Below are positions 926 to 19,776 of a stretch of DNA of 46,069 nt, piece by piece. The DNA is from Phycisphaera mikurensis. Its GTDB lineage: Bacteria; Planctomycetota; B15-G4; JADJEK01. The DNA is taken from NCBI GenBank assembly GCA_020723465.1, contig DYIW01000007.1, positions 1-46,069 of the forward strand. Reading direction: 5' to 3'. The notes beneath the pieces are model-generated. The model did no database searches. It was not told the DNA's origin and saw only the letters and a program-made list of their open reading frames with translations. The first letter of the stretch is position 1; each line of letters starts with the position of its first letter. The translations under genes and the position numbers were made by a program.

Positions 926-3900
926 GTGACGGTGCCTAAGCCACTCCGCCGCGGACAGTTGCTCGTCGGCGCGCTCTTCAGGGAGGCGATGCGCGTCGAG
1001 ACCGTCGAGGCGAGCGGCCCGGAGAGCTGGACGGTCGGGCTGGTGGGCTCGCGGTCGGAGCGGTACCGCAAGGTCACGCTGACGGCGGCCGATCTGGCGC
1101 AGCTCAGCATCCTGGACACGGAGCGCTCGTTCGACGGGGACGGCCGCCTGGTGCGGCTGGGCCTGCAGGCGTACGCGCTCGGCATCGCGTTCGAGTTCGA
1201 CCCGTACTTCGGCCTGTCGATCTCGCGCGTGGATCCGCTGCCCCACCAGCTCGAAGCGGTCTACGACTACCTGCTGAAGCTCGCGCGCGTGCGCTTCCTG
1301 CTCGCGGACGACGCCGGCGCCGGCAAGACGATCATGGCGGGCCTGCTGATCCGCGAGCTGGAACTGCGCGGGCTCGCCGAGCGCATCCTGATCGTCTGCC
1401 CGGCGAACCTGGCCTTCCAGTGGCAGCGCGAGCTGAAGGAGAAGTTCGACACCAAGTTCCTGGTGATGAAGGGCCAGGACCTGCGCGAGCAGTTCGGCGT
1501 GAACCAGTGGCTGGAGCGCAACCGGGTCATCACGTCGCTCGACCTGGCGAAGCGCGCGGAGATCCTGCCGGGCTTGCGGCAGGTTCACTGGGACCTGGTC
1601 ATCGTGGACGAGGCGCACCGCATGTCGGCCGCGGACGAGTCGCACAAGAGCCTGCGCTACCGGCTGGGCGAGCTCCTGCGCGACAGCGCGGATCACATGC
1701 TGCTGCTCACCGCCACTCCGCACAAGGGCGACCCGCAGAACTTCAGCCTGTTCCTGCAGTTGCTCGACGCCGACGCCTACGCGGACGTCAAGTCGATCCG
1801 CGAGGCCATGAGCCGCCGCCGCGCGCCCTTCTACCTGCGGCGCACCAAGGAGGCGATGGTCCACTTCCCCGAGCGGCGCGGCGACGGCTCGTGGGCGGCG
1901 GAGCCCATCTTCACCAAGCGCATCCCGCACACCGTCGACTTCCAGATCGACGGCGCCGAGTTCGACCTCTACCGCGACGTGACGCGCTTCGTGAAGCGCG
2001 AGAGCGCCCGCGCCGCCGCCGCGGGCGAGGATCCGCGCGCCCGCGCCATCGGCTTCCTCATGTCCCTCTACCAGCGCCGCCTCGCGTCCAGCACCTTCGC
2101 CATGCGCCGCTCGCTGGAGAACCGCACGCGCCGCCTGGAAGAGGGCCTGAAGCGCGCGCAGGACCTGGTCCGCCAGGCGCCCCCCGACCTCCCGGACCCG
2201 GAGGAGCTCGAGGAAATGGAGGAAGGCGAGCGCGAGCGGCTCGAGCAGATGCTCGAGGCGATCACGCTTTCCGGCAGCGCGGAGCAGGTGCGCCAGGAAG
2301 CTCTGGAGCTGCGGCGCCTCGCGGACCAGGCGCGCGCCGTCGAGGAAGCGGGCGCCGAGGCCAAGCTCTCCCAGCTCAGGGCGCTCTTGCACGAGGAGGG
2401 CTTCTTCGACCGTCCGACGCAGCGCCTGCTGCTCTTCACCGAGTTCAAGGACACGCTCGACTACCTGGTCGATCGCCTGCGGCTCTGGGGCTTCCGCGTG
2501 GGCTTCATCCACGGCGGCATGAAGATCGGCTCGCGCGACGACCCGGGCACGCGCCTGCATGCGGAGCAGCAGTTCAAGGAGGGCGAGATCCAGGTGCTCG
2601 CGGCCACCGAGGCGGCCGGCGAAGGCATCAACCTGCAGGTGTGCAACATCCTCTTCAACTACGACATCCCCTGGAACCCCAACCGGCTCGAGCAGCGCAT
2701 GGGCCGCATCCACCGCTACGGCCAGCGCAAGGACTGCCTGATCTTCAACTTCGTGGCCACAAACACCATCGAGGGCAAGGTGCTGCAGCGCCTGCTCTTG
2801 AAGCTGCAGGAGATCCGCGACGCCCTGGAGGACGACGCGGTCTTCAACGTCGTGGGCGAGGTGCTGCCCGCGGCGCACGTCGAGCGCGTGCTGCGCGACT
2901 ACTACGCCGGCCGCCTCGGCGACGCCGACCTCGAGGAGCGCCTGCTCTGCAACGTGGACGAGCGCCAGTTCCGCGCCATCTGCCAGAACGCGCTCGAGGG
3001 GCTGGCGAGCAAGAAGCTCAACCTCGAGATGCTGATCGAGCGGCGCGCCCGCGCCCAGGAGCGCCGCGTCGTGCCCGAGACCATCGCGCGCTTCCTGCGC
3101 GAGGCGGCCGAGTACGTGCCGCTCGCGCTCAAGCCCGTGCCGTCGCTGCCGCACGCCTTCGAGCCGGCGCGCACGCCGCCCGCGCTGCGCCGCTTCGAGA
3201 AGGAGGCGGACTGGAAGCTGCCCGCGCTGGCCGACCGCTATCCGCGCTGCTCCACCGACCGCGAGACCGCCGAGACCGAGAAGCTCGAGTGGGTCACGCC
3301 CGGCCATCCCCTGTTCGAGGCCATGCGCCGGCATACCCACCAGCGCGCGCTGGACGACCTGCGCCGGGGCGCCGCTTTCCACTCGCTGCAGCACGAGGCG
3401 CCGGCGCGCCTCGACTTCTACCGCGCGCGCATCGTCGACGGCCTCGGGCAGGTCGTGCACGAGCGGTTGTTCGCGCTCGAGATCGCCGAGCAGGGCGAGC
3501 CGCGGCTCCAGGAACCGAGCCTGCTCGGCAACTTCGCGCCGGCCGAGGCGCCGGTCGCCCTGCCCGCGGCGGCGCTCCTCCCCGAGGCCACGGCCTGGCT
3601 CCACGAGCACGCGCTGCTGCCGTTCCTCGAGGAGACGCGCGCCGAGCGCCTGGCGGAGGTCGATCGCGTCGGCGCGCACGTGGAGCTGTCGCTCACCGAG
3701 CTCCTGCAGCGCGCGGACGAGGAGATCGGCCGCGCCGCCGCCGACGCCGAGCAGAAGCTCCCCGGCGCCGAGGGGCGGCTCGCGCTGGCCGAGGCGCGCC
3801 ACGGCGAGCTGCTCGCCCGCCGGGAGCGGCGCCGCGCGGATCTCGAGCAGCAGCGCGCGCTCACTCTGCAGTCCGTGGAGCGCCTGGCCAGCGTGCTGGT

Positions 3901-4360: not shown

Positions 4361-4364
4361 ACCG

Positions 4365-6137
4365 ATGTCTGCAATGCGACTGACCGAAAGGGACCTTGGC
4401 CGCGAGCTCGACGAGTTCAAGGAACGCTACCCGAAGCTCTCCGACGACGAACTGTTCGTGCTCTGGTTTCTGCGCGCCTTCGTGGCCGAGGACGAGGGCT
4501 CGGCGGCATCTGCACTCTGTGGTGGCCCGCGCGACAAGGGTATCGATGCCGTCTTGATCGACGACGCTGCCCGAATCGTGTTCATGGTTCAGGGCAAGTA
4601 CCGCCACAAGGTGGCTGCGAAGGCGGAGCGTCGCGAGGACGTCACGGGGTTCGCCCAACTCGCCGCAGACCTCTGCGGAGACGGGCCCGCGTTCGTGAGC
4701 CTTTGCAAGGACCTTTCGCCGGAAGTCTCACGCCGCCTGGATGAGGCACGCACTCGCATCAGGAAGCGCGGTTATGGGTTGCATCACTACTACGTGACGC
4801 TCGGCAAGTGCAGCGGCGCGCTTCGCGACGAAGCCACACGGATCGTCCGCGCTGCCGATGCTGCAACCGTGTTCGAGATCTTTGAGGGCAAGAGGATCAT
4901 GCTGCTGCTCGCCGACTACCTCGACGGCGTCGCGCCACCCGTGCCTTCCCTGGACATCGCGATCGAATCTGGCGGCGGCGTGCGCACTGGTGGAGTCTTC
5001 AACCGGTACGACAGCAAGACCGAGATCGAGTCCTGGGCCTTCTCCATGACCAGTGCCGCGGTCGCGGACATGTACGAGCGCGCAGGCAGCCGGCTGTTCG
5101 CGCGCAACGTCCGAGGATTCCTCGGCAGCACGGAGATCAACCGGGGCATGGAAGCCACGCTGCAAAGGGAACCGGAGTACTTCTGGTACTACAACAACGG
5201 CATCACGATCATCTGCGATGACGCCAAGCAGGAGTCGAGCCGCGGCCAGCAGATCCTGCGCGTTACCAACCCGCAGGTCATCAACGGCCAGCAGACCACG
5301 AGAACGCTAGCGCGCACTGGGAGCGACGGCCAGAAGGCAAGTGTACTGGTGCGGGTCATCCGTGTGCCCCGTTCATCGCAGCGCGCGGACAACGGCTTCG
5401 AGACGCTGGTCTCGCGCATCGTATCCGCGACGAACTGGCAGAATGCGATCCGGCCGTCGGACCTGATGTCGAACGACCGGCGCCAGATCGAGATCGAGCG
5501 GCAGCTCCGAAAGCTCCACTACCTCTACTTGCGCAAGCGGATGACCAAGGGTGAGGCGCGCCGCGCGGCAGGCGCCCGACACCTTCGCCTGATCAAGAAG
5601 GAGGAACTCGCGCAGGCCGTAGCGGCTTGTGACCTGGATCCATTGGTCGTGCGCGAAGGCAAGGAGGGGCTGTTCGAGGAGCGCTGGTATGGACAGGTGT
5701 TTCCGACCGCCGATCCGAACTACTACCTCTCGCGCTACTGGCTGATGCGGGAGGTGAGCTACACCGCCCGTGGGTACCCAGAGCGAGCTTACGCCAAGTG
5801 GCTTGTCCTGAACTTCGTATGGCAGTCCCTTGATCCGTTGTGCCGCAGGCGGGCAGCGGCGACCGCGTTTCGCGAGGCGTGCGAGCGCGACACCGCGGAG
5901 CTCGTGAGTCCTTTGCTCAGAGCAATCGACGCCGCCTTCGGCGCCTCTCTGCGCTTCTACCGCGCGAACCGCGGCAGCGGTCCGACCGCGATCGACGTCT
6001 CGACCTTCTTCAAGCGCCGCAACCTCGACAAAGAGTTCGCACGCTTCTGGCGGGGTTCGCGCAACGCGTCGCGCGGGCGGTACAACCGATCTTGGGCGCG
6101 ATTCCGCAAGGTGCTCGAGGGGGAGATGAGCGCGTGA
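4365..6137 (+). CDS. AIPR-family abortive-infection protein.
   Basis: YFWYYNNGITIICDD is the AIPR hallmark. The N-terminal DKGIDAVLIDD...VFMVQGKY looks like a restriction-endonuclease-type core. The start lies 4 nt after the helicase stop. Confidence 0.8.
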   Translation: MSAMRLTERDLGRELDEFKERYPKLSDDELFVLWFLRAFVAEDEGSAASALCGGPRDKGIDAVLIDDAARIVFMVQGKYRHKVAAKAERREDVTGFAQLAADLCGDGPAFVSLCKDLSPEVSRRLDEARTRIRKRGYGLHHYYVTLGKCSGALRDEATRIVRAADAATVFEIFEGKRIMLLLADYLDGVAPPVPSLDIAIESGGGVRTGGVFNRYDSKTEIESWAFSMTSAAVADMYERAGSRLFARNVRGFLGSTEINRGMEATLQREPEYFWYYNNGITIICDDAKQESSRGQQILRVTNPQVINGQQTTRTLARTGSDGQKASVLVRVIRVPRSSQRADNGFETLVSRIVSATNWQNAIRPSDLMSNDRRQIEIERQLRKLHYLYLRKRMTKGEARRAAGARHLRLIKKEELAQAVAACDLDPLVVREGKEGLFEERWYGQVFPTADPNYYLSRYWLMREVSYTARGYPERAYAKWLVLNFVWQSLDPLCRRRAAATAFREACERDTAELVSPLLRAIDAAFGASLRFYRANRGSGPTAIDVSTFFKRRNLDKEFARFWRGSRNASRGRYNRSWARFRKVLEGEMSA

Positions 6138-6166
6138 TCGCGAAGGACTGCAAGCGTCTCGCCGAG
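6134..6166 (+). repeat. Diverged copy of the methylase 5' end. The native copy is 6523..6555.
   Basis: gtgatcgcgaaggactgcaagcgtctcgccgag versus atgatccccaaggagtgcaagcgcctggcggaa. Both are in frame and encode the same I-x-K-[DE]-C-K-R-L-A-E peptide. Confidence 0.55.
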
Positions 6167-6526
6167 TCCGTCAAGCGTCAGGCGCGCCTGCCGCAGCCGG
6201 ACCGGCGGCGGATTCGGGAGGACCTGAGCGAGGTGGAGCAGGCGCTCTTGAAGCACGTGGCGGCGGAGGGCCGGGTGACCCGCGCCCAGCTCGTGGCGGC
6301 CTACGATCTCAGCGCGGATCAGGCCAAGCGGCTGCTCGCCGGGCTGGTGGAGCGCGGCCTGCTCGAACGTCGGGGCGAGGGGCGAGGCGCCCACTACGAG
6401 ACCGCCCGAAAAAAACGGGCGGTCGCCCGATCTATTGGGCGAGCGCCCATTTCAGGCGCCAAACCGCCCAATCCCGGTAGGAAAGCCCGGGGACCGAGTC
6501 GGAAGGGCAAGAAGGGGGCCCGATGA
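6134..6526 (+). CDS. Small winged-helix DNA-binding protein with a basic tail. Its first ~11 codons duplicate the methylase N-terminus.
   Basis: GTG 6134 overlaps the AIPR stop (GTGA) and the stop overlaps the methylase ATG (ATGA). RVTRAQLVAAYDLSADQAKRLLAGLVERGLLERRGEGRGAHYE is a typical wHTH. VIAKDCKRLAE compares with methylase MIPKECKRLAE. Confidence 0.55.
   Translation: MIAKDCKRLAESVKRQARLPQPDRRRIREDLSEVEQALLKHVAAEGRVTRAQLVAAYDLSADQAKRLLAGLVERGLLERRGEGRGAHYETARKKRAVARSIGRAPISGAKPPNPGRKARGPSRKGKKGAR
6401..6472. repeat. Nested inverted repeats around an A7 tract inside the 3' end of the wHTH ORF, 50-120 nt upstream of the methylase ATG.
   Basis: ACCGCCCG(6401-08)-AAAAAAA-CGGGCGGT(6416-23). 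There is an alternative CGGGCG(6416-21)/CGCCCG(6424-29) pairing. ATTGGGCG(6434-41) pairs with CGCCCAAT(6465-72), enclosing GCGCC(6443-47)/GGCGC(6455-59). The repeats are directly visible; their function is unknown. Confidence 0.5.
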
Positions 6527-9500
6527 TCCCCAAGGAGTGCAAGCGCCTGGCGGAAGTGGACTTTCCGATCGCCGAGGTGAGCCGGCACGCGGCGCGGGAG
6601 AAGTCGATCCGGCACGGGCATCCGAGCACGCTGCACCTCTGGTGGGCGCGGCGGCCGCTGGCATCGTGCCGTGCGGTGCTGCTGGCGCTCTTGTGGCCGG
6701 ACCCGTGCGATCCGCTCTGCCCGGCGGAGTTCAAGAGAGAGGCGCGGAAGCGCCTGCGCGAGGTCGGCGGCTGCAACCCGGGCAGCACGGACCAGGACCT
6801 GCGCCGCGCGCTGCTGCGCTTCATCGCGGACTTCGCGAACTGGGACAACGCGGCGCAGCCGACCTATCTCGAGGTGAGCCGGGCGCTGGTCAAGGCGGCG
6901 CACGCGCCCGCGGACGGCGGCCCGTACGAGCCGCCGCTGGTGGTGGATCCCTTCGCGGGCGGCGGCTCGATCCCGCTCGAAGCGCTGCGCGTCGGCTGCG
7001 AGGCGTTCGCGAGCGACCTGAACCCGGTCGCGTGCCTGATCCTCAAGGTGATGCTCGAGGACATCCCGCGCCACGGGCCGAAGCTCGCCGAGGACCTGCG
7101 CCGCGCCGGCGCGGAGATCAAGGCGCAGGCCGAGAAGGAGCTCGCCGACCTCTACCCCAGGGACCCGGACGGCGCCACGCCGATCGCCTACCTGTGGGCG
7201 CGCACCGTGCGCTGCGAGGCGCCGAACTGCGGCGCCGAGATCCCGCTGGCGCGCTCCTTCTGGCTGTGCAAGAAGAGCAACCGCCGCCGGGCGCTCCGCA
7301 CGCGCGTCGAACGGCCCGAGGAAGGGCCGCCGCGCGTGGAGTTCGAGGTCTTCGTGCCGAAGAGCGAGAAGGAGGTCCAGGGCGGCACCGTGGCGCGCGC
7401 CAAGGCGAGCTGCCTGGCTTGCGGCGCGGTGCTGCCGCCGGACCGCGTGCGCGCGCAGCTCGCCGCTGAGCGCGGCGGCGCGGACGTGGTGTTCGACGAG
7501 AAGGGCCGGCGAACCGGCGGGGCGCGGCTGCTGGCGGTGGTGACGCTCCGGCCCGGCGAGACCGGGCGGCACTACCGGCTCCCGGTCGATCGCGACGACC
7601 AGGCGGTGCGCCGGGCGCAGGCGCGGCTGGCGAAGCTGCTGGGCGACTGGGAGCGCGGCGGGAAGCAGGGGCTCTGCCCGGTGCCGGATGAGCCGACGCC
7701 GCCGATCGGGACGCTGGGTTTCCGAGTGCAGCGCTACGGCATGCTGCAGTGGGGCGACCTGTTCACGGCGAGGCAGAAGGTGGCGCTCCGAACCATCGCG
7801 GCTGCGGCGCGTGATCGACCGCAGTCGGGAGACGATGCGATTCGAACGACGATGGCAATGGTAGTTGGCCGGTGCGCGGACTACTCAAGCTCGATCGTCA
7901 GCTGGGCCCAGTCCGGAGAGTTCGTGCGGAGCACGTTCGGCCGCCAAGCGTTGCCGATCGTGTGGGATTTCGCGGAAGCGGTTCCGTGGTCGGACTCGTC
8001 TGGGAACCTGGACGGCGCCATCGACTGGACGTCCCGGGTCATCGAGCAGTGGCCGGGTTCAAAGGCCGGGCAGATCCAACCTGCTGACGCCACGGAGCAC
8101 CCTTTGCCGGACGACACGGCGCATCTCTGGTTCACCGACCCGCCGTACTACGACGCGGTCCCATACGCCGATCTCTCTGACTACTTCCTCGTCTGGCTCA
8201 AGCGCGCACTGCCGGGCCACCCGTTGCTCTGCGACCCCTTCGATCCGTCGGACCCTCTCGCGCCCAAGGCCCGCGAGGCGGTGCAGGACGAGACCAAGCA
8301 GCACGACGGTCGGTCCAAGGACCGTTCGTGGTTCGAGGAGACGATGGCCAAAACCTTCGCCGAGGGACGCCGCGTGCTGCACGAGGACGGAGTCGGCTCC
8401 GTGGTCTTCGCGCACAAGACCACGGAAGGTTGGGAAGCGCTCCTATCCGGGATGATCCGTGGCGGCTGGACGATCACCGGCTCGTGGCCGATCGCCACGG
8501 AGCGCCCCGGTCGTCTGCGCTCGCAGGATTCCGCCGCCCTCGCCACCAGCGTCCACCTCATCTGCCGCCCGCGGCCCGACGACGCCGGCGTGGGCGATTG
8601 GGCGGACGTGCTGCGCGAGCTGCCGGCGCGCGTCAGCGGGTGGATGGAGCGCCTGCAGGGGGAGGGCGTGCGCGGCGCGGACCTCGTGTTCGCCTGCATC
8701 GGTCCGGCGCTCGAGATCTTCAGCCGCTACGCCAGGGTCGAGACCGCCGAGGGGCGCGAGGTCAAGCTCGACGAGTATCTCGCCAAGGTCTGGGAGGTGG
8801 TCGGCCGGAGCGCTCTCGCGCAGGTGCTCGGCACGGCCGAGGCCGGGGTTCGGAACGGCGCGGGCGGCGCGGTCGAGGAAGACGCCCGGCTTACCGCGCT
8901 CTTCCTGTGGACGCTCCAGGCCACGGGCAACGGGACGGGGGCCGACAGGAGCGGCGACGAGGAAGGCGGCGAGGAGGCCGAAGAGGAAGAGGACGAGGAA
9001 GGCACGTCGCGCGGCAAGGCCAGGGGCTACGCGCTCGTGTTCGACGTGGTGCGGCGCTTCGCCCAGCCGCTCGGCATCGATCTGCCGAAGTGGGAGGCCC
9101 GAGTGATCGAGACCAAGAAGGGCGTGGTGCGCCTGCTCTCCGTGGCGGAGCGCGCGAGGCAGCTCTTCGGCGAGGAGGGAGCGGGCGCCGTGGCCGCGCG
9201 CCTGGAGCAGGCGGCGCCGGCCGGCCCGAACCCGCTGCAGGGCCTGCTCTTCCCCGAGGTGGAGGCCGCGCCGAGGGTCCGCGGCCGCGGCGCGCGCGGC
9301 CGCGGCGGGCGTCTCGCGGGCGGCGAGGTCTCGGACGAGGCCCTGGCCGCCGCGGGCGAGGCCACCACCCTCGACCGGGTCCACGCCGCCATGCTGCTCC
9401 AGGCCGGCGGCCGCACCAACGCCCTGCGCGCGCTGCTCAGGGCCGAGCAGGACCGCGGCCCGGACTTCCTGCGCCTCGCCAACGCTCTCTCCGCGCTCTA

Positions 9501-9561
9501 CCCTAAGGACAGCGAGGAGAAGCGCCTGCTCGACGCGATGCTCCTGGGGGTGCCGAGATGA
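6523..9561 (+). CDS. DUF1156-type (COG1743-like) N6-adenine/N4-cytosine DNA methyltransferase.
   Basis: The N-terminus [45 protein letters not shown] is the DUF1156 signature. The SAM motif is [15 protein letters not shown] and the catalytic motif is FTDPPYYD. There is an acidic linker and a helical C-terminal module. Confidence 0.9.
   Translation: [1012 protein letters not shown]
9358..9561 (+). repeat. Methylase 3'-end repeat, copy A. This is the native copy and forms the last 67 codons plus stop of the methylase.
   Basis: It aligns without gaps to 13248..13451. My hand count gives roughly 23 mismatches over 204 nt. Its last ~64 nt also align to 11898..11961. Confidence 0.85.
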
Positions 9562-10763
9562 TCAGCATGGACCCGATGATCCGCAGTCTCGTGTTGAAGC
9601 GATTCCGTAGTGTTCCCACGGCGCGCATCGAGTTCGACAATCCCACGATCTTCGTCGGCCGCAATGGTTCGGGGAAGAGTAACCTGGTTAGCGCGTTTTC
9701 ATTCCTCGCGGAAGCGATGGCCTCGCCGCTCCAGGCGGTCTTCGACCGAGCCGGCGGCATCTCCGCCGTTCGCAATCGATCTTCGGGTCGGAGCTATCCC
9801 CCGCATCTCGGCATGCGCGTCGACTTCGCGCACCTGAACGGAGAGGCGCGCCACGGCTTCTACGCCTTCGAGGTCAAGGCCCTCAAGAACTACGGGTTCT
9901 CCGTGGTGCGCGAGCAGTGCTCCATCGGAGAGCAATCGTCGCGCGCCTGGTTCGATCGCGTCGAGAACCGATTCAGCTCGAACATCGCGGGGCTGAAGCC
10001 GGCCCTCGACGCGGCCGCGCTCGGCCTGCCGGTGATCGGAGGGGAAGAGAGGTTCGCGCCGGTGCTGCGTGCGCTGGCCGGTCTGCGCGTTTATTCCATC
10101 GAACCGGGCAAGCTCCGCGACATGCAGGAGCCCGACAGTGGCGTCGCGCTGAAGCCAGATGGCGCCAACGTCACGAGCGTCCTCAAGGAGATCGAGCGGC
10201 AGTCCGCCGACGACTTCACCCGCATCTCCGAGATCCTCGCCACCATCGTCCCGAACACGAAGGGCGTGCGGGTACAGAAGCACGGCAAGAACCTCGCGCT
10301 CCAGTTCACCCAGGAATGGGGTGACCGGAAGCCGAAGCGCCTCAACTTCGAGGGGTTCAGCATGTCCGATGGCACGCTGCGCGCCATCGGGCTCCTGGCG
10401 GCCGTGTTCCAGAGACCGCGGCCGTGTCTGATCGCGGTCGAGGAACCTGAAGCGACTATCCATCCGGGGGCGCTCGAATCCGTCCTCGACCTGCTCCTCT
10501 ACGCGAGCAGGCACATGCAGGTCGTGGTGACGACGCACAGCCCGGACTTGCTCGATGCAAAGTGGATCACGGATCGGCATCTCCGGCTCGTGGAGTGGAG
10601 GGAGGGCGCGTCACACGTCGCGGCTGTATCGGACGCGAACCGGGAGGCCCTGCAGCGGCACCTCATGGGTGCGGGGGAGCTGCTCCGCGCGAACGCGCTG
10701 GAGCCCGGACCTCTCTTCGATGAGAGGATCGACACGGACCTTCTCTTCGAGGATCTGCGATGA
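9558..10763 (+). CDS. ABC/SMC-like AAA ATPase (AAA_15/AAA_21 type), the ATPase of cassette 1.
   Basis: Walker A is FVGRNGSGKSN, the signature-like motif is MSDGTLRAIGLL, Walker B is IAVEEPEATIHP and the H-loop is VVVTTHSPDLLD. ATG 9558 overlaps the methylase stop (ATGA). Alternative ATGs lie at 9567 and 9576. Confidence 0.85.
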   Translation: MISMDPMIRSLVLKRFRSVPTARIEFDNPTIFVGRNGSGKSNLVSAFSFLAEAMASPLQAVFDRAGGISAVRNRSSGRSYPPHLGMRVDFAHLNGEARHGFYAFEVKALKNYGFSVVREQCSIGEQSSRAWFDRVENRFSSNIAGLKPALDAAALGLPVIGGEERFAPVLRALAGLRVYSIEPGKLRDMQEPDSGVALKPDGANVTSVLKEIERQSADDFTRISEILATIVPNTKGVRVQKHGKNLALQFTQEWGDRKPKRLNFEGFSMSDGTLRAIGLLAAVFQRPRPCLIAVEEPEATIHPGALESVLDLLLYASRHMQVVVTTHSPDLLDAKWITDRHLRLVEWREGASHVAAVSDANREALQRHLMGAGELLRANALEPGPLFDERIDTDLLFEDLR

Positions 10764-11383
10764 TCGTGCAGCCGATCGTCGAAGGTCAGGGCGACGTGGC
10801 GGCTGCTCCGGTCCTCCTGCGGCGTCTGGCCGAGGAGGCGCAGGCGTGGAATGTCCGGGTCGCGCGGCCGCATCGGCGCAGGCGGACGCAGCTCGTGCGC
10901 AGGGACGGCCTGCAGGACGCCGTGCGCGTGGCGCGGTTGACGCCAGGCTGCAGCGCCATCCTGATTCTTTTCGACGCGGACGACGACTGCCCGAAGCGGC
11001 TGGCTCCCACGCTCGCGGCCTGGGCGCAGGAAGCAGCGGACCCGATTCCGAGCGCCATCGTCATGGCCAACCGCGAGTACGAGGCCTGGCTGCTCGGCGC
11101 GGTCGAATCGCTTCGGGGCAGCGCCGGCATTCGTACCGACGCGGAGGCGCATGCCGACCCGGAAGCTGCGCGCGACGCCAAGGGGGAGTTGGAGCGCCGG
11201 TTGCTTCCTGGCGCCAACTATCTGCCGACAGCGGATCAGGCCCGGTTGACGGCCCAGATCGATTTGGCGACGGCGTACCGCTCCTGCCGGAGCTTCCGCA
11301 AACTGGTGGGGGCGTTCGGCGCCTTCCTGTCCACCGGCGGCGTGAGGCCACCGGAGTGGCCGCCGGCAACGTGGGGGCAGTGA
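10760..11383 (+). CDS. DUF4276-family protein (TOPRIM-like putative nuclease), partner of the cassette 1 ATPase.
   Basis: MIVQPIVEGQGD, ILILFDADDDCP and NREYEAWLLG match the three conserved blocks I associate with DUF4276. The ATGA overlap with the ATPase stop indicates coupling. Confidence 0.7.
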   Translation: MIVQPIVEGQGDVAAAPVLLRRLAEEAQAWNVRVARPHRRRRTQLVRRDGLQDAVRVARLTPGCSAILILFDADDDCPKRLAPTLAAWAQEAADPIPSAIVMANREYEAWLLGAVESLRGSAGIRTDAEAHADPEAARDAKGELERRLLPGANYLPTADQARLTAQIDLATAYRSCRSFRKLVGAFGAFLSTGGVRPPEWPPATWGQ

Positions 11384-11384
11384 T

Positions 11385-11795
11385 ATGACGGGCGTGGTCT
11401 GGCAGATCTCCGGAGGGCCGGCCTCGCGGTCCTACGCCGAGGTGTTCCTGAAGCACGGGGTCGCCTTGATCGGCCCGGGAGACGCCGGCCCGTGGACGCC
11501 CGAGCGGGACGACACCGCGTTCGACGGCAGCTTCGTCCGGCGCTTCGCCAGCGAGGTCCTGGCCGGGGACCTGGTCCTGCTGCGCTCTGGGCTCGCCACG
11601 GTCGCCGCCGTAGGTCTCGTGGGTGGCGGCTACCAGTACCTGAACGCGTTCGACGACGTGAACGGCTGGGACCTCCACCACGCCCGGCGAGTGCGCTGGT
11701 GCCGGCTCGACCAGCCGCATGCCTTCGCCGGGTCGGTCTTCGGCGCCAACCCGCAGCCGGCCGCCGGCCTGTTTGCGCGCGTGCGGAGACCGTAG
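11385..11795 (+). CDS. Hypothetical 136-aa protein, third gene of cassette 1. It may have a PUA/EVE-like fold.
   Basis: ATG lies 1 nt after the DUF4276 stop. Composition is non-shadow. The pattern GVALIGPGD...GDLVLL....VAAVGLV.GGYQY...........HHARRVRW resembles small PUA/EVE-type reader domains, but this is only a weak by-eye resemblance. Confidence 0.5.
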   Translation: MTGVVWQISGGPASRSYAEVFLKHGVALIGPGDAGPWTPERDDTAFDGSFVRRFASEVLAGDLVLLRSGLATVAAVGLVGGGYQYLNAFDDVNGWDLHHARRVRWCRLDQPHAFAGSVFGANPQPAAGLFARVRRP

Positions 11796-11805
11796 GAGGA
11801 TCGCG

Positions 11806-11961
11806 ATGGAACCCTGGTACAAGGTCGCCGAGCCCCGCAAGGAGGTCCGCGAGGGCCGCTCGTTCAACCCGGGCGAGTTCGCCATGCCGGCAGCACTTCT
11901 CCGTAGGGACAGCGCGGAGAAGAGCCTGCTCGACGCGATGCTCCTGGCGGTGCCGCGGTGA
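11806..11961 (+). pseudogene. Recombination scar. A 51-codon chimeric ORF joins the DUF499 RBS and first ~26 codons to the last ~20 codons of the methylase.
   Basis: MEPWYKVAEPRKEVREGRSFNPGEFA compares with DUF499 MEPWYKVATPRKEVREGRSFNPDEFA. ...[14 protein letters not shown] compares with methylase ...[14 protein letters not shown]. The RBS GGAGGA is retained upstream. Confidence 0.75.
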
Positions 11962-11971
11962 GGAGAGTCCG

Positions 11972-13207
11972 ATGCTGAAGAAGCTGACCACCCAGGGATT
12001 CAAGTACCTCGCGGACGTGAGTGTCGAGTTCCCGCGCATGGCCGTGCTGTTCGGTCCGAATGCGGCCGGCAAGAGCAACCTGCTGGACGCGATCCAGGCG
12101 CTCTCGCGGATCGGCACCGAGCGCACGCTGGCTGACGCGCTCGCCGATCCGATCCGGGGACGTCAGATCGAGGCCTTCCTCTTCCCCGCCGACGGGCTTC
12201 CGGCGCTGCTGGCCGCGCCGTCGGCCAAGTTCTCGCTCGAAGCGGACGTGACGCGGGCAAGTGTTTGCTACCGGTACCGCGTCGAAGTGGCGATCTCGCC
12301 CGCTTCCGGCGCCTTGTCCGTGGCCGACGAGTACCTGGCGGCGCTGGCAAGGGATGGCACGCCCAAGCCACCGGCCGCGATCGAGAAGGTCGAGGGTAGT
12401 CTCCGGCTGCGACGGAAGGGGGATTCCGGCAGACCGCACTACGAGCCTCTGGGCTTGAACTACGCGCACCTCTCCGACGCTCGGCTGGCGGGGCCGCTGT
12501 ATCGAGCGATCGAGGCCGTCCGGTCCGAGCTCTCCGACTGGCGCACCTACTACCTGGACCCGCGCGTCGCCATGCGGTCGGCGCAGCCGCCTTCCGACGT
12601 GCGAGACATCGGCGTGCTCGGCAGCGACATCGCGCCCTTCCTCTATCGACTCCAGGCGGAGCACCCGAAGCTCTTCGCCGCCGTGTCCCGCACCCTGCGC
12701 TCGATCGTGCCGAGCGTCCAGGAGCTGACGGTCGATCTGGACAAGCGGCGCGGCACGCTCGACATCCTCATCCGCCAGGCCGGCGTCGACTGCTCCTCCC
12801 GCATCGTCTCGGAGGGGACGCTGCGCGTGCTGGCGCTCTGCGCCATCGCCGTGAATCCCTGGGGAGGCTCGCTGCTCGCCTTCGAGGAGCCCGAGAACGG
12901 GGTGCACCCGCGCCGGCTCGAGTTGATCGCCCAGCTCCTGCTCTCGCTGGCGCTGGACCAGGGACGCCAGGTCGTCGTCACCACGCACTCGCCGCTTTTC
13001 TGCGACGCGGTGCTGAAGGGCTCGCGGGCGCGAACCGAGGACGTCGGGCTGTTCAACGTGCGGCGCGATGGCGCCGCCACGATCGTCAGCGCTTTCGACG
13101 TGTGCGGGCCGCTGTTCAAGGACCAGGAGATCACACGGGCACTGACCGCCGGCACCGAGGATGGCCTGTTCGAGAGCCTGCTCTTGCGGGGGCTGCTCGA
13201 TGAGTGA
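11972..13207 (+). CDS. ABC/SMC-like AAA ATPase, a paralog of the cassette 1 ATPase. This is the orphan ATPase of cassette 2.
   Basis: MLKKLTTQGFKYL...LFGPNAAGKSN is Walker A, SEGTLRVLALCA the signature-like motif, LAFEEPENGVHP Walker B and VVVTTHSPLFCD the H-loop. ATG 11972 is preceded by GGAGAG, 10 nt after the scar stop. The track ORF start at 11492 is a shadow extension. Confidence 0.85.
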   Translation: MLKKLTTQGFKYLADVSVEFPRMAVLFGPNAAGKSNLLDAIQALSRIGTERTLADALADPIRGRQIEAFLFPADGLPALLAAPSAKFSLEADVTRASVCYRYRVEVAISPASGALSVADEYLAALARDGTPKPPAAIEKVEGSLRLRRKGDSGRPHYEPLGLNYAHLSDARLAGPLYRAIEAVRSELSDWRTYYLDPRVAMRSAQPPSDVRDIGVLGSDIAPFLYRLQAEHPKLFAAVSRTLRSIVPSVQELTVDLDKRRGTLDILIRQAGVDCSSRIVSEGTLRVLALCAIAVNPWGGSLLAFEEPENGVHPRRLELIAQLLLSLALDQGRQVVVTTHSPLFCDAVLKGSRARTEDVGLFNVRRDGAATIVSAFDVCGPLFKDQEITRALTAGTEDGLFESLLLRGLLDE

Positions 13208-13451
13208 CGCCTTCGCCGTCGATCTCTTCGTCGAGGACCGCGCGCACGAGGCCACCACCCTCGACCGGGTCCACGCCGCTATGCTGCTCCAGGCGGGCGG
13301 CCGCACCAGCGCGCTCAGGGCGCTCGTCAGGGCCGAGCAGGAGCGCGGCCCGGACTTCCTGCGCCTCGCCAACGCCCTGTCGGCCCTCTACCCCCGGGGC
13401 AGCGAGGAGAAGCGCCTGCTGGACGCGATGCTCCTGGCGATGCCGAGGTGA
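13200..13451 (+). pseudogene. Chimeric 83-codon ORF. Its 16 N-terminal codons resemble a TOPRIM/DUF4276-like gene start and are fused to a copy of the last 67 methylase codons.
   Basis: ATG 13200 overlaps the ATPase-2 stop (ATGAGTGA). MSDAFAVDLFVEDRAH is followed by [67 protein letters not shown]. The stop overlaps the next start (GTGA). Confidence 0.65.
13248..13451 (+). repeat. Methylase 3'-end repeat, copy C.
   Basis: Gap-free alignment to 9358..9561. Most differences are synonymous, for example CGC to AGG for Arg and CTG to CTC for Leu. Confidence 0.85.
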
Positions 13452-15133
13452 CGATGATCCGACGCGTAGTGATCAAGAACTTCAAGCGCTTCACGGAGCA
13501 GACGTTCGACCTGGCGGACTCGATCGTCCTCGCGGGTCCGAACAACGCCGGGAAGTCGACTCTCTTGCAGGCGATCGCGACCTGGAAGCTCGGCCTCGAG
13601 CGATGGATCGCACAACGCCAGGGGAGCAAGGCCGTGAAGCGCTCCGGCGTCGCCATCACCCGAGCAGACTTCACCGCGGTGCCGCTGCGGGAGATGAACC
13701 TCCTTTGGGAGGATCGGCGTGTCTCTGGAGACGGCGAGAGGCCGGGGACGCCGCGCTTGATCGAGATCGTGCTGCAGGGCGAAACCGGCGGAACGTCGTG
13801 GACCTGCGGCCTCGAGCTCCAGTATCAGGGCCCCGAGCAGGTCTACGTCCGCCCGCAGGGCGCGAAGACCCTCGACCAGGACGCGATCCGCGCGTTCCCT
13901 GCCGAGGCAGCCAGAAGCCTCGAGATCGTGCACGTTCCGCCGCTCTCCGGGATCGAGCGTGACGAGCCGCGGCGCGACCGCGGCATGCAGGACCTGCTCG
14001 TCGGCCAGGGACGCCCCGGCGAAATCCTCCGCAACCTGCTGTGGGAGATCGCGCAGAACCTCAAGGAAGACTGGCAGGCCATGGCCGGGCACCTCCGCGA
14101 GCTATTCCGGATCAAGGTGCTCGAACCCTCCTACTCGCGCACCCAACCATTCATCGTTTGCGAGTACCGGGAGCCAGGCCACGAACGGCCGCTCGATCTG
14201 TCCAACGCGGGGAGCGGCACGCTCCAGGTGCTCCTGCTGCTCGCGTTCCTCTACGCCCGGCCGGCGAGCGTCATCCTGCTCGACGAGCCCGACGCGCACC
14301 AGCACGTCATTCTGCAGAAGCAGGTATACGAGCTGATCCGCAAGGTCGCGCGCGAGCGCGGCGGCCAGGTGATCATGGCGACTCATTCGGAGGTCGTCCT
14401 GGATGCGACGGAGCCGAGCCGCGTGCTCGGCTTCTTCGGTGCGGCTCCGCGCGCGCTCGGCAGCGAGACCGAGCGCGATCGGCTGCGAGAAGCGCTGAAG
14501 CGCGTCACGACCACCGACCTCCTGCTGGGGCAGGACGTCGGCGCCGTGCTCTACGTCGAGGGCGAAAGCGACGAGAAGATCCTGCGCGAGTGGGCCCGCA
14601 TCCTCGAACACCGGGCGAGGCGGTTTCTCGACCGGCCGTTCGTCCACTGGCTGGGTGGCAGGAGCCTGCGCGAGGCGAAGGCGCACTTCTTCGCCATTCG
14701 GGCGGCCTTTCCGGCGATCCGCGGTCTCTGTCTGCTCGACGGCGACAATCGGGACGAACCGGACGAGGAAACGGCACACGCCGGCCTGATCGTCCTGCGC
14801 TGGCGGCGCTACGAGATCGAGAACTACCTGCTGCAGCCTGCGGCCATCAAGCGCTTCGTCTTCCCTGACTTCCCGCTGCTCGAGCCGCGCGTGGACGAGG
14901 AGTTCTGGAAGCAGGTGCCGCGAGGAGCTGACCTCTTGGGCGAGCACGTCTCGTTGGTTCGCATCAAGGGGAGCGACGAGTTCCTCGTGCCCTTGTTCGA
15001 GGCTCTGGAGCGGCCCACGCCCAAGAAGGACCTCTATCTGCTGGCGGCGAGGATGGAACGAAGCGAGATCCATCCGGAGGTCAGGGAGAAGCTCGACCGC
15101 ATCGCCGAAGTCCTGTGTCCGGATGAGCACTGA
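13448..15133 (+). CDS. Fused ABC ATPase and DUF4435/TOPRIM protein, an OLD-family / single-polypeptide PARIS (AriA-AriB)-like defence protein.
   Basis: Walker A is LAGPNNAGKST, Walker B is ILLDEPDAHQH and the H-loop is VIMATHSEVVLD. The C-terminal blocks LYVEGESDEKIL, WLGGRS, CLLDGDNRDEPD and RYEIENYLL are DUF4435/TOPRIM blocks. The start is GTG 13448 or ATG 13454. Confidence 0.8.
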   Translation: MTMIRRVVIKNFKRFTEQTFDLADSIVLAGPNNAGKSTLLQAIATWKLGLERWIAQRQGSKAVKRSGVAITRADFTAVPLREMNLLWEDRRVSGDGERPGTPRLIEIVLQGETGGTSWTCGLELQYQGPEQVYVRPQGAKTLDQDAIRAFPAEAARSLEIVHVPPLSGIERDEPRRDRGMQDLLVGQGRPGEILRNLLWEIAQNLKEDWQAMAGHLRELFRIKVLEPSYSRTQPFIVCEYREPGHERPLDLSNAGSGTLQVLLLLAFLYARPASVILLDEPDAHQHVILQKQVYELIRKVARERGGQVIMATHSEVVLDATEPSRVLGFFGAAPRALGSETERDRLREALKRVTTTDLLLGQDVGAVLYVEGESDEKILREWARILEHRARRFLDRPFVHWLGGRSLREAKAHFFAIRAAFPAIRGLCLLDGDNRDEPDEETAHAGLIVLRWRRYEIENYLLQPAAIKRFVFPDFPLLEPRVDEEFWKQVPRGADLLGEHVSLVRIKGSDEFLVPLFEALERPTPKKDLYLLAARMERSEIHPEVREKLDRIAEVLCPDEH

Positions 15134-15141
15134 GGAGGCGA

Positions 15142-17898
15142 ATGGAACCCTGGTACAAGGTGGCGACGCCGCGCAAGGAGGTCCGCGAGGGCCGCTCCTT
15201 CAACCCGGACGAGTTTGCCATCGCCCTCGAGCAAGTGAAGGCGGGAACGGCGCCCGAGGACTACCGCGAGCCCAAGCAGTTCTTCGCCAGGACCTGCTTC
15301 ACGCGGGCGCTCCGCGAGCACGCGGGCATGGTGCTGCGCAGGCTCAGCGGCCGGACCGAGAACACCGCGCCGGTGCTGACCCTCATCACGCAGTTCGGCG
15401 GCGGCAAGACGCACACCTTGACGGCGCTCTACCACCTGGCGAATCAGGGCGACGCGGTCTCCGGCGACCCCGGGGTGGCTGCGCTCTTGCGCGAGGCCGA
15501 CCTGGCAACCGTCCCGAAGGCGAAGGTGGCGGTGTTCGTGGGCAACGCCTGGGATCCGCGCGACGGCCGCGAGACGCCCTGGATCGACGTCGCGCGCCAG
15601 CTCGCCGAAGACAAGGGCGTGGATGCACTGGGGCCTTCGGCGAAGACCACGCCTCCGGGCACCGAGGCGATCGCGCGCGTCTTCCAGGCGGCCGATGCGC
15701 CCGTCCTGCTGCTTTTCGACGAGGTGCTGAACTACCTCAACCGGCACCGCAAGAGCGCTGATTCGTTCCACGCCTTCATCCAGAACCTGACGGTCGCCAC
15801 CACCGGCACGACCCACGGCGCGTGCGTGGTCAGCCTGCCGCGCAGCCAGGTGGAGATGACCGAGTGGGACCAGGAGTGGCAGGACCGGATCTCCAAGGTG
15901 GTGCGGCGCGTGGCCAAGGACCTGATCGCCAACGACGAGACTGAAATCAGCGAGGTGGTGCGGCGGCGGCTGTTCCAGGACCTGGGCAGCGAGAAGGTCC
16001 GCCGCAACGTGGCGCGGCAATTCGGCGACTGGTGCTTCGAGCGGCGCGCGCAGCTTCCGCCGGAGTGGACCGCGGTGGACTCGGCGGCGACCGAGGCCAA
16101 GGCGCGCGAGTTCCTGCAGCGCCGCTTCGAGGCCTGCTACCCGTTCCATCCGGCGACGCTGTCGGTCTTCCAGCGCAAGTGGCAGTCGCTGCCGCAGTAC
16201 CAGCAGACGCGCGGGACGCTGGCGATGCTGGCGCAGTGGGTCTCGCTGGCCGCGCAGGACGCGTTCACGAAGGCGCGCACCGAGCCGCTGATCACGCTCG
16301 GCTCGGCGCCGCTCGGCGAGCCGGGCTTTCGCAGCGTGGTGCTCGGGCAGCTCGGCGAGTCGCGGCTCATCGCGGCGATCGACACGGACATCGCCGGCGA
16401 ACAGGCCCACGCTCGCGCGCTCGACGCCGACAGCAAGGGGCCGCTCCGCGACATCCACCGGCGGGTCGGCAGCACGATCCTGTTCGAGTCGTCCGGCGGC
16501 CAGACGGCGAAGGTGGCGCACCTGCCGGAGCTGCGCTTCGCGCTGGGCGAGCCCGAGATGGACACGACTTCGATCGACAGCGCTGCGCTCGCCCTCGAGG
16601 AACGCTCCTACTTCGTGCGCAAGGCGGGAACCGACGGCTTCCGCATCGGCTACCAGCCGACGATGAAGAAGGTGGTGAGCGACCGGCGGGCGTCGCTCGA
16701 CGACGAGACGGAGATCAAGCCGGCGCTGCGCAAGCTGGTGGAGGACGAGTTTCGCCGGGGCGCGAGCATCCCGGTGGTGCCTTTCCCCAGCGAGGGCGCC
16801 GAGATCCCGGATACGCCGAGGCTCACGCTGGTGGTGGCCGATCCGGAGCGGGAGTGGTCCGGCGCGGGCCCGCTGCGCCAGGAGATTGCCGGCTGGACGA
16901 GGAGCCGCGGGAGGTCGCCACGGCTCTATCCCGGCGCGCTCGTGTGGTGCCTGAAGAAGCCGGGCCGGGACCTGCGCGAGAAGGTCGAGCTCGCGCTCGC
17001 CTGGAGGCGGGTCTCGCGCGAGGTGGCGGACGGCACGCTTGGCGGCGAGTTCGACCGGAACGACCGGGCAGAGCTGCAGGCGAAGCTCAAGGACGCCGAG
17101 CAGGGCGCCAAGGACGAGGTCTGGGGCGACTACCGCTTCGCGCTGCTCGCGGACGCCCAGGAGCCGGATGGCCTGAAGGTCATCGACCTGGGCGCGGGGC
17201 ACTCCTCCAGCGGCGAGACCCTGTGCGGGCGCGTCATCGCGGCGCTCAAGTCCGAGGCGCTGCTCAACGAGTCCGCCGGCGCCGGGTACCTCGAGCGCAA
17301 CTGGCCGCCGGCGCTGAAGGAGTCGGGCGCCTGGCCGCTCGCGAGCCTGCGGCAGAGCTTCCTCAACGGAGCCCTGACGCGGCTTGTCGATCCCGATGCC
17401 ACTCTCAAGTCCAAGATCGTGGAGTTCGTCACGCGTGGCGAGTTCGGCCTGGCTTCGGGCAAGAAGGCGGACGGCAGCTACGAGCGCACGTGGTTCCAGG
17501 AACTTGTTGCTACTGACGAGGTCGCCTTCGAGTCGGACGTCTTCTTGCTCAGGAAGTCGAAGGCGGAGGCCCTGAAGGCAGAGAAGCCGGCGAAGCCCGC
17601 GCCGCCTCTACCGCCTGGGGCCGTTCCCACGCCGCCGGTCGGGCCGGGTCCCACGCCTGTGATCCAGCCAAAGCCGGTGGCGGCGACGCGGACGCTGCGC
17701 CTCTCGGGCAGCGTCCCGCCTGAGATCTGGAACCGCCTCGGCACCAAGATCCTGCCCAAGCTGCGCTCGGGCACGGATCTCAGGATCGGGGTGGAGCTCG
17801 TGGTCACCGTGCCCGAAGGCTCCGCCAGCGGGCTCGCAGACGAGCTTCGGCAGATTCTGCAGGAGCTTGGCCTCGGCCAGGCCGTGTCGATCCAGTGA
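15142..17898 (+). CDS. DUF499-type (COG1483-like) P-loop ATPase.
   Basis: The characteristic N-terminus is MEPWYKVATPRKEVREGRSFNPDEFAIALEQV. Walker A is TQFGGGKTHTL and Walker B is VLLLFDEV. RBS GGAGG lies 6 nt upstream. Confidence 0.9.
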   Translation: MEPWYKVATPRKEVREGRSFNPDEFAIALEQVKAGTAPEDYREPKQFFARTCFTRALREHAGMVLRRLSGRTENTAPVLTLITQFGGGKTHTLTALYHLANQGDAVSGDPGVAALLREADLATVPKAKVAVFVGNAWDPRDGRETPWIDVARQLAEDKGVDALGPSAKTTPPGTEAIARVFQAADAPVLLLFDEVLNYLNRHRKSADSFHAFIQNLTVATTGTTHGACVVSLPRSQVEMTEWDQEWQDRISKVVRRVAKDLIANDETEISEVVRRRLFQDLGSEKVRRNVARQFGDWCFERRAQLPPEWTAVDSAATEAKAREFLQRRFEACYPFHPATLSVFQRKWQSLPQYQQTRGTLAMLAQWVSLAAQDAFTKARTEPLITLGSAPLGEPGFRSVVLGQLGESRLIAAIDTDIAGEQAHARALDADSKGPLRDIHRRVGSTILFESSGGQTAKVAHLPELRFALGEPEMDTTSIDSAALALEERSYFVRKAGTDGFRIGYQPTMKKVVSDRRASLDDETEIKPALRKLVEDEFRRGASIPVVPFPSEGAEIPDTPRLTLVVADPEREWSGAGPLRQEIAGWTRSRGRSPRLYPGALVWCLKKPGRDLREKVELALAWRRVSREVADGTLGGEFDRNDRAELQAKLKDAEQGAKDEVWGDYRFALLADAQEPDGLKVIDLGAGHSSSGETLCGRVIAALKSEALLNESAGAGYLERNWPPALKESGAWPLASLRQSFLNGALTRLVDPDATLKSKIVEFVTRGEFGLASGKKADGSYERTWFQELVATDEVAFESDVFLLRKSKAEALKAEKPAKPAPPLPPGAVPTPPVGPGPTPVIQPKPVAATRTLRLSGSVPPEIWNRLGTKILPKLRSGTDLRIGVELVVTVPEGSASGLADELRQILQELGLGQAVSIQ

Positions 17899-19772: not shown

Positions 19773-19776
19773 CGCG

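Follow-up and report, generated by a model that had tools for sequence, protein, structure and literature searches.

The window analysed here is contig DYIW01000007.1 of the Phycisphaera mikurensis assembly GCA_020723465.1 (Planctomycetota), taken at its full length of 46,069 nt. Its subject is a run of twelve plus-strand open reading frames (ORFs), present in the ORF listing of the window at 926..17898, which very probably constitutes an operon of the Hma, or Type-1 bacteriophage exclusion (BREX)-related (BR), class: a restriction-modification (R-M)-like system with embedded cassettes and a mosaic construction. The GC content of the window is ~70%, and the strongest third-position GC (GC3, compared by frame) coincides with the frame of every ORF in the run, reaching 0.92-0.97 in the three core genes versus 0.81-0.89 in most of the inserted genes. 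The twelve ORFs are the following.

926..4360, plus strand: hmaA, SNF2/Swi2 helicase with a C-terminal PD-(D/E)xK (NOV_C) nuclease, predicted restriction effector (PADLOC HmaA, E 1.4e-172, residues 8-1091).
4365..6137, plus strand: cassette 1, intact gene for an AIPR/AbiU-like, predicted abortive-infection protein (Pfam AIPR, E 1.5e-42; PADLOC AbiU, E 6.7e-41).
6134..6526, plus strand: g3, chimera of the hmaB 5' end and the tail of a Schlafen-type AlbA_2/HATPase_c_4 gene (sequence match to both parents).
6523..9561, plus strand: hmaB, DUF1156 N6-adenine DNA methyltransferase, predicted self-marking enzyme (PADLOC HmaB, E 1.6e-121).
9558..10763, plus strand: cassette 2, gene A, intact HEC-01A ABC-type ATPase (PADLOC HEC-01A, E 1.3e-106, nearly full length; Pfam AAA_21/AAA_15).
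10760..11383, plus strand: cassette 2, gene B, intact HEC-01B, the DUF4276 (TOPRIM-like) partner (PADLOC HEC-01B, E 9.2e-64; Pfam DUF4276).
11385..11795, plus strand: g7, deletion derivative with an EVE/YTH-like (PUA-fold) putative reader domain (homology to ~321-aa proteins; AlphaFold model, pLDDT 83).
11806..11961, plus strand: scar 1, in-frame chimera of hmaC codons 1-26 and the last ~24 hmaB codons (repeat matches).
11972..13207, plus strand: cassette 3, ABC2, HEC-01A-like ABC ATPase, intact but with its partner lost (PADLOC HEC-01A, E 6.8e-53; Pfam AAA_21/AAA_15).
13200..13451, plus strand: scar 2, in-frame chimera of the first 17 codons of W, the partner gene of ABC2, and the last ~66-69 hmaB codons (repeat and W match).
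13448..15133, plus strand: cassette 4, ABC3, intact ABC ATPase with a putative fused C-terminal TOPRIM/DUF4435-like domain, possibly OLD/PARIS-like (Pfam AAA_21/AAA_15; PADLOC NsnB, AriA and AriAB, 1e-21 to 1e-25).
15142..17898, plus strand: hmaC, DUF499 ORC/Cdc6-type AAA+ ATPase, predicted loader and scaffold for methylation and restriction (PADLOC HmaC, E 1.2e-92, residues 1-817).

Pfam and PADLOC profile searches confirm the families that a first-pass annotation, made from the letters and the ORF listing, had assigned to the core trio (SNF2 helicase, DUF1156 methylase and DUF499 ATPase), and all the motifs that it had quoted for these three are found in the proteins concerned. HmaA contains SNF2-rel_dom, Helicase_C and NOV_C (residues 1013-1099) domains, with GAGKT at aa 131, DEAH at aa 228 and QRMGRIHRYGQ at aa 590; the C-terminal D..ExK nuclease proposed for the helicase corresponds to NOV_C and to D..EVK at aa 1042-1059. 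HmaB (Pfam DUF1156, E 3e-22) carries FAGGGS at aa 144 and DPPY at aa 539, and HmaC (Pfam DUF499, E 3e-13) has a Walker A motif, GGGKT, at aa 86 and a Walker B motif, LLLFDE, at aa 189. All three core genes are intact. A PDB search with a threshold of E 0.01 gave no sequence relative for either HmaB or HmaC.

The locus is assigned to Hma because the HmaA, HmaB and HmaC models match best and because PglZ, DUF3780 and a PLD domain are absent. As in Hma loci, the three core proteins match their hidden Markov models over nearly the full length, in the same order and on the same strand, the helicase carries the C-terminal PD-(D/E)xK (NOV_C) nuclease, HmaC is the non-HEPN form, and defence genes, among them the published candidate HEC-01, are embedded in the locus. 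The Gao_RL models of PADLOC score far lower than the Hma models (methylase 7e-38 versus 1e-121; ATPase 1e-17 versus 1e-92), as do the BREX and DISARM models. A PADLOC PLD_Helicase match to HmaA (1.4e-28) has its best stretch at helicase residues 501-630. The earlier label "R-M/BREX-like" is thus borne out, the trio being a Type-1 BREX-related system. The label "uncharacterised" does not hold: the trio matches an already named and partly studied system (PADLOC E 1e-172, 1e-121 and 1e-92), which is in large part the outcome that the first-pass annotation itself had named as speaking against its reading. Hma was named in 2021 (Payne 2021) and has been reclassified as a Type-1 DUF499-centred BR system (NAR 2026). 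As the first-pass annotation stated, the COG1743/DUF499/SNF2 association had already been pointed out in comparative surveys (Anantharaman 2013 and Bell 2020, as cited in later work).

For comparison, 160 related loci (numbered with an L below) were considered, namely 80 genome loci anchored on HmaB and 80 metagenome loci anchored on ABC2 (L081-L160). The one-strand order hmaA-hmaB-hmaC is common to the window and the 80 genome loci. HmaA homologues in 80 genomes show 63-87% identity, and the HmaC homologues of related loci 57-89%. HmaB homologues with 74-84% identity occur in Binatia, Dormibacteraeota, Rokubacteria, Acidobacteria, Planctomycetes and Proteobacteria, and such identity across many phyla points to a wide horizontal spread.

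Within HmaB, a hypervariable block lies at approximately residues 406-626 (7741-8400); over residues 426-525, amino acid identity among 56 loci is 0.20-0.41. The block overlaps a dip in GC3 (0.77-0.87 versus ~0.95 elsewhere in hmaB). Judged from sequence, the block probably represents the target-recognition region, possibly exchanged between lineages. Separately, several related loci (L064, 5907-9556; L091, 2472-5987; L137, 2378-5989; L058; L065; L070) show a break in the tblastn alignment with HmaB: after residue ~220-290, 270-680 nt follow that match nothing in the query. An additional domain, an intein-like element or replacement of this segment could account for the break. The hmaC match of L021 comes in three pieces about 1.7 kb apart (13671-14615, 16341-17882 and 19622-19888), suggesting insertions within this core gene.

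Published work offers a framework for the activity of the core. HmaA alone defends E. coli against T4, and its NOV_C domain is a Mn-dependent nickase needed for defence; T4 grown under HmaB over-expression was neither detectably protected from HmaA nor sensitised to it (Liu 2024). An R-M-like model has been proposed in which self DNA is marked by the methylase, scanning and scaffolding fall to the DUF499 ATPase, and restriction is the task of the helicase-nuclease (NAR 2026). For the sister system MANTIS (Type-2), loading of the methylase by the DUF499 ATPase and a co-factor has been shown experimentally, resulting in hemimethylation at asymmetric 6-bp sites; the loading complex also licenses the helicase-nuclease, and unmodified sites in inverted orientation are preferred (bioRxiv 2026, preprint September 2026). 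The statement in the first-pass annotation that no mechanistic study was known is superseded by the nickase work on HmaA against T4 and by the MANTIS mechanism. By analogy, HmaC, as an ORC/Cdc6-like AAA+ protein, would load HmaB onto DNA, and host recognition sites would thereby be marked as self. Incoming DNA with unmodified sites would license HmaA, whose SNF2 motor would translocate on the DNA while its C-terminal PD-(D/E)xK domain nicks or cleaves it. Such an R-M-like mechanism is the most likely one for the core of the window.

MANTIS/Gao_RL (Type-2 BR) shares with the window a homologous DUF499 AAA+ ATPase, an N6-adenine methylase and an SF2 helicase-nuclease, and it is the best experimental model for methylase loading and for the restriction of unmodified DNA. 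As differences, Pfam and PADLOC find no gene for the small co-regulator DUF3780 (MtsB) among the ORFs of 926-17898, and the nuclease of the window is a C-terminal PD-(D/E)xK domain, whereas that of MANTIS is an N-terminal PLD/HKD domain, which there replaces the TUDOR domain and the C-terminal REase. Type-3 BREX (BrxC, PglXI, BrxHII and PglZ) likewise has a homologous ATPase, methylase and SNF2 helicase, HmaA matching BrxHI/BrxHII at 1e-104. In contrast to that system, PglZ, BrxA, BrxB and BrxF are absent from the locus in Pfam and PADLOC searches, the methylase has a DUF1156 N-terminus, and the ATPase is of the DUF499 rather than the DUF6079/BrxC form. The locus thereby also lacks the combination typical of BREX types 1-6, an alkaline-phosphatase-family PglZ protein with a BrxC/PglY ATPase.

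The array between the core genes is what distinguishes this locus, which is an unusually cargo-rich Hma operon. Embedded genes are found in 62.7% of 1,485 Hma loci, and the "HEC" candidates were defined from such genes (Payne 2024); the Hma region has also been described as an insertion hotspot for defence genes (Liu 2024). The idea of a "landing pad" raised by the first-pass annotation was correct; embedding within Hma is published in both studies. The combination of cassettes and the Planctomycetota host lineage are new with respect to published Hma. In the published survey, no more than three genes were allowed between core genes, a limit exceeded by the seven ORFs lying between hmaB and hmaC (Payne 2024); this limit is an operational rule and not a biological criterion. 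The survey furthermore kept only loci with each hma gene present once and none a pseudogene (Payne 2024), so that loci such as this one, with duplicated hmaB and hmaC fragments, may have been missed. Because of these rules (at most three genes per gap, single copy, no pseudogenes), the catalogues of Hma-embedded genes may under-sample the richest loci.

The AIPR/AbiU protein of cassette 1 is, by its profile matches, predicted to be of the abortive-infection type; the GC3 of its gene is 0.82, versus 0.97 for hmaA. The pair at 9558-11383 agrees with the definition of HEC-01, that is, an ABC-type ATPase followed by a DUF4276/TOPRIM-like protein. For ABC3, the C-terminus gives only sub-threshold DUF4435 and OLD-TOPRIM matches (E 0.1-0.25), weakly suggesting a fused ATPase-TOPRIM-like protein of the OLD/PARIS (AriAB)/HEC-04 type, a group characterised by an ABC ATPase linked to a TOPRIM nuclease domain with acidic metal-binding residues; a full-length homologue, 75% identical, abuts hmaC in L052. 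AIPR/AbiU, HEC-01 and ABC3, together with the orphan ABC2 and with g7, the reader deprived of its nuclease half, would represent independent second-line defence cassettes placed between the core genes. The remaining ATPase, ABC2, aligns over its full length with 80 metagenomic homologues (65-83% identity). An intact partner W of ~205 aa lies directly 3' of ABC2 in 58 of the 64 loci whose sequence extends far enough in that direction, and the usual metagenome arrangement, in intact form, is hmaB-ABC2-W(~205 aa)-(EVE-nuclease gene)-hmaC; in the window only 17 codons of W are left. The ABC2-W pair is very common in metagenomes, either directly after hmaB or without an upstream hmaB (28 of 75 loci).

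The g7 ORF corresponds, at 66-70% identity, to the first ~123 plus the last ~9 residues of proteins of 321-324 aa and, since only these two portions of the parent are kept, it is an in-frame internal deletion derivative. Full-length relatives lie directly 5' of hmaC in L024 (15115-16080) and of an hmaC 5' remnant in L022 (9961-10935). A position immediately 5' of hmaC is frequent in the full-length family (~321 aa). In a Foldseek search with the AlphaFold model, the best PDB folds were the EVE-type restriction enzyme VcaM4I, YTH readers of N6-methyladenosine (YTHDF2) and the EVE protein PH1033, at E 1e-4 to 5e-3 and with low TM-scores of 0.45-0.55; the model thus bears some resemblance to EVE/YTH-like readers of modified bases, a group with a PUA-like beta-barrel fold and an aromatic cage. 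The missing half contains a D..EAK-like motif and looks like a PD-(D/E)xK nuclease. The full-length family, which has no Pfam or PADLOC match, accordingly resembles a candidate modification-dependent (Type IV-like) nuclease. Homologues of g7 in the databases are truncated in many different ways. To regard g7 as a simple degraded gene was considered and set aside: full-length homologues do carry the nuclease-like half, yet EVE proteins standing alone have been reported as recurring companions of such operons. For the latter reason, g7 is retained as a candidate for a working reader-only protein.

The ORFs of the run are closely coupled. Read directly from the sequence, a gap of 4 nt separates the hmaA stop from the AIPR start; GTGA overlaps join AIPR to g3 and scar 2 to ABC3; ATGA overlaps occur at g3/hmaB, hmaB/HEC-01A and HEC-01A/HEC-01B. 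HEC-01B and g7 lie 1 nt apart, gaps of 10 nt are found both between g7 and scar 1 and between scar 1 and ABC2, ABC2 overlaps scar 2 by 8 nt, and 8 nt separate ABC3 from hmaC. The ORF calls and these junctions substantiate the coupled plus-strand run 926-17898 described in the first-pass annotation, together with its junctions in the form of ATGA or GTGA overlaps or gaps of 1-10 nt, to which the 8-nt overlap is added. The twelve ORFs it counted do exist as a run; 11806..11961 and 13200..13451 are gene-fragment chimeras rather than genes of their own, 6134..6526 is a chimera as well, and 11385..11795 is the deletion derivative. Its count of "five additional immunity-type modules" was likewise too high: apart from three intact modules and an orphan ATPase, the array holds only leftovers, in the form of the three chimeric ORFs and the deletion derivative. 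In simple scans of the plus strand over 926-17898, neither terminator-like nor sigma-70-like sites came up, which is weak evidence in a non-model organism of 70% GC. The cassettes are probably co-transcribed with the core genes.

Such an arrangement could also be read as one integrated super-system, in which the ABC ATPases, the AIPR protein and the small ORFs are all obligate partners of HmaABC. The tight translational coupling throughout the array, the single orientation without detected internal plus-strand terminator-like sites, the published ideas of backup effectors and co-regulation for embedded systems, and the reported recurrence of standalone EVE proteins would all fit. However, nearly all related loci vary in the cassettes they hold, the 28 ABC2 loci mentioned above lack an upstream hmaB, and HEC systems, selected for presence in >100 genomes, are expected to be common outside Hma loci (Payne 2024). 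Moreover, in this very operon one cassette is without its partner gene and another without its nuclease half. Obligate partnership is therefore considered improbable, and the array is better described as a set of separable cassettes hosted by Hma.

Nesting of this general kind has precedents in Type I R-M systems with PrrC and in BREX with BrxU, both of which are defence systems with embedded passengers (Payne 2024). There, as here, a second-line system sits in the same orientation inside a modification-based system and is plausibly triggered by inhibition of the host system. The window differs in having several passengers in series, bordered by fragments of host-system genes.

These border fragments constitute the three chimeric leftover ORFs. 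The first, g3, starts with ~11 codons of the hmaB 5' end (VIAKDCKRLAE versus MIPKECKRLAE in hmaB), and over residues 9-130 it shares 66% identity with the C-terminal winged-helix tail of a protein of 600 aa, which stands intact between hmaA and hmaB in L045, with SLFN_AlbA_2 and HATPase_c_4 domains; the join falls at a Leu-Ala-Glu codon triplet common to both parents (CTsGCsGAr). In scar 1, 80 nt are 90% identical to the hmaC 5' end (15142-15221) and the 3' end matches that of hmaB. Scar 2 begins with MSDAFAVDLFVEDRAHE, matching the N-terminus of W, MSSPVTVDIFVEDRAHEAFL, and continues with 211 nt that are 89% identical to the hmaB 3' end (9351-9561). On the left, each junction has the start of the gene that follows a cassette in its source locus; on the right, it continues with the terminal part of the gene preceding the next cassette in the source locus of the latter.

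Repeated gene ends of this type might be suspected of having arisen during metagenome assembly, by concatenation of strain variants that differ in their cassettes, and mixtures of such strains are plausible. The junctions, for example that from hmaC codon 26 to hmaB codon -24, nevertheless lack any long identical k-mer, so that graph assemblers have no path there. The copies are, furthermore, only 89-90% identical, and equivalent remnants are present in chromosome-level records of metagenome-assembled genomes, including L024 (OZ253547.1). Misassembly is thus regarded as highly improbable, and genuine recombination junctions remain the preferred explanation.

Remnants of the same kinds occur in about a fifth of the related loci (~15 of the 80 genome loci and ~20 of the 80 metagenome loci, ~35 of 160 together), for example in L022, L052, L087, L129, L148 and L158. 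Head-to-tail chimeras join hmaC 1-18 to hmaB 972-1012 in L022 and the hmaB 5' end to the hmaA 3' end in L052 and L129, and L087 carries 35 codons of W fused to the last 9 codons of hmaB; the breakpoints differ between loci. Several remnants are frameshifted or carry stops, for example in L024, L052, L140 and L158. In a hand count of a hand-picked sample, 8 of 10 junctions are in frame, which suggests selection for translational coupling.

As a separate observation, a 12-nt motif with 10/12 identity is found at hmaC codons ~26-29 (GCC ATC GCC CTC; 15214-15231) and at hmaB codons ~-28 to -25 (GCC AAC GCT CTC; 9478-9495), and the hmaC 5'/hmaB 3' junctions of the window, L148 (7830-7960) and L158 (2340-2480) lie at or near it. 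All three fall close to "DEFA" of hmaC and "ANALSA" of hmaB. The motif could be a recurrent microhomology hotspot or mark an inherited junction.

An attempt to trace the hmaB 3' copy of scar 2 by best match was uninformative, the copy being 88% identical both to another locus and to the resident gene, and the ratio of nonsynonymous to synonymous substitution rates (dN/dS) was used instead for this reason. Against the resident copies it amounts to 0.25 for scar 2 (24 differences from the hmaB 3' end) and 0.13 for scar 1 (hmaC 5' end), and the copies would therefore have diverged inside working genes of different Hma lineages. Low dN/dS values could alternatively mean that the chimeric mini-ORFs encode functional small proteins, for example a free C-terminal helical module of HmaB acting as adaptor or regulator of the downstream ATPase. 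This is compatible with their being in frame, with their proper start codons and high GC3 (0.885 and 0.95), and with the occurrence of hmaB 3' remnants directly 5' of ABC2-type ATPase genes in ~8 further loci. On the other hand, a low dN/dS is equally expected if the divergence is older than the fusion, the breakpoints vary among loci, several remnants elsewhere contain frameshifts or stops, and each of the three core genes, as well as cassette genes, has contributed remnants. A function of this kind appears unlikely, and the mini-ORFs are preferably viewed as junction scars.

It might also be argued that the whole locus is no more than what is left of several Hma systems, decaying, without function and kept by chance, given that 4 of its 12 ORFs are fragments or deletion derivatives, that one ATPase is orphaned, and that the database homologues of g7 are so variously truncated. 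This is at odds with the full-length hmaA, hmaB and hmaC, which retain every catalytic motif, and with three cassettes that are full length relative to models or homologues. In addition, all four rearrangements of the window preserve the frame and the start/stop coupling, which argues for continued selection on the expression of the downstream genes. The relic interpretation is accordingly judged improbable, and a maintained Hma operon is preferred.

Collectively, these findings point to the following model of assembly. Segments consisting of the end of an upstream core gene, a cassette and the start of a downstream gene, originating from at least four Hma lineages, would have been joined head-to-tail. 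The joining would be due to illegitimate recombination, apparently aided by microhomology, and would have left three in-frame chimeric mini-ORFs (6134-6526, 11806-11961 and 13200-13451) without breaking translational coupling. The GC3 of the inserted genes, lower than that of the core, is in keeping with such a mosaic origin. Two other routes were considered. Integron-like or insertion sequence-like borders were rejected: the window has no inverted repeats at the cassette borders, a tRNA search of the window found no tRNA genes, and Pfam and PADLOC gave no integrase, transposase or recombinase domain among the ORFs scanned. Conserved gene ends serving as anchors for homologous recombination were examined in codon alignments of 39-57 loci, where the N- and C-termini of HmaB and the N-terminus of HmaC are conserved at the protein level; synonymous identity at these ends is 0.33-0.48, no higher than in gene interiors, which lends no support to homogenisation at the nucleotide level.

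The orphan toxin-immunity arrays downstream of rhs and cdiA genes offer a partial parallel: their cassettes stand in series, a piece of the conserved coding sequence from upstream precedes every one of them, and they probably arise by recombination and permit later swapping. There, however, such pieces come from the very gene that has its tip exchanged, whereas the window stacks whole independent genes between intact core genes, with fragments from both neighbours.

Several points weigh against this overall interpretation. The seven ORFs between hmaB and hmaC exceed the spacing of the published survey, and standard tools might fail to call a single system. Methylation, restriction and the activity of each cassette are assigned by homology, and published experiments on Hma are thin; given that HmaA alone sufficed against T4 in E. 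coli and that HmaB over-expression gave no detectable protection of T4, the R-M-like division of labour rests mainly on MANTIS and on domain logic. HEC-01 itself showed no defence in the published screen (Payne 2024). As for the history of the array, the sample behind the in-frame count was not systematic, the window is a single metagenomic contig, and since synonymous identity is not raised at the ends of the core genes, there is no sign of frequent homologous exchange at the flanks. The recombination model is a reconstruction, in which the putative microhomologies are deduced from diverged relatives rather than from the true parents.

The surroundings of the operon comprise one further plus-strand ORF upstream and a possible gene pair downstream.

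345..773, plus strand: upstream ORF, formerly "RusA-like" (sub-threshold Pfam RusA match, E 0.021, 15.9 bits versus a cut-off of 22.8; no PADLOC match; GC3 0.75).

The RusA identity given to this ORF in the first-pass annotation was rejected, the Pfam match being only sub-threshold, and its membership of the Hma system is doubtful. Its GC3 is well below that of its neighbours, and it lies at the contig edge, beyond which a prophage or other mobile element might adjoin the Hma locus. Downstream of hmaC, a 62-aa ORF (17986-18174) overlaps a gene for a 148-aa DUF2204/AbiEii-like nucleotidyltransferase (18116-18562); the two look like a toxin-antitoxin-type pair beside the defence operon. The remaining contig carries ordinary chromosomal genes, encoding GH130, an APH-family kinase, an HDOD protein, agmatine deiminase and saccharopine dehydrogenase. 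The last of these shares 89% identity with a protein of a Planctomycetes metagenome-assembled genome and ~70% with Phycisphaerae proteins, which agrees with a Planctomycetota host.

With regard to the wider family, the balance stands about even on whether Hma operons are growing cassette arrays, assembled by microhomology-mediated head-to-tail joining, with in-frame mini-ORFs kept by selection and direct repeats, such as the 211 nt of the hmaB 3' end, allowing later cassette loss or reshuffling. The system, part of its mechanism and embedding as such are already known, and the use of chimeric junction scars as a clue to embedding is modestly new: no description of remnants within Hma operons was found in the Hma papers searched for remnant-related terms or in wider literature searches. 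How and why defence systems embed was left open in published work (Payne 2024). If the model is true, stacking by recombination would provide a concrete mechanism for embedding, and the junction scars would be a readable history of cassette stacking inside another defence operon, so that the question would become testable by comparative genomics and recombination assays.

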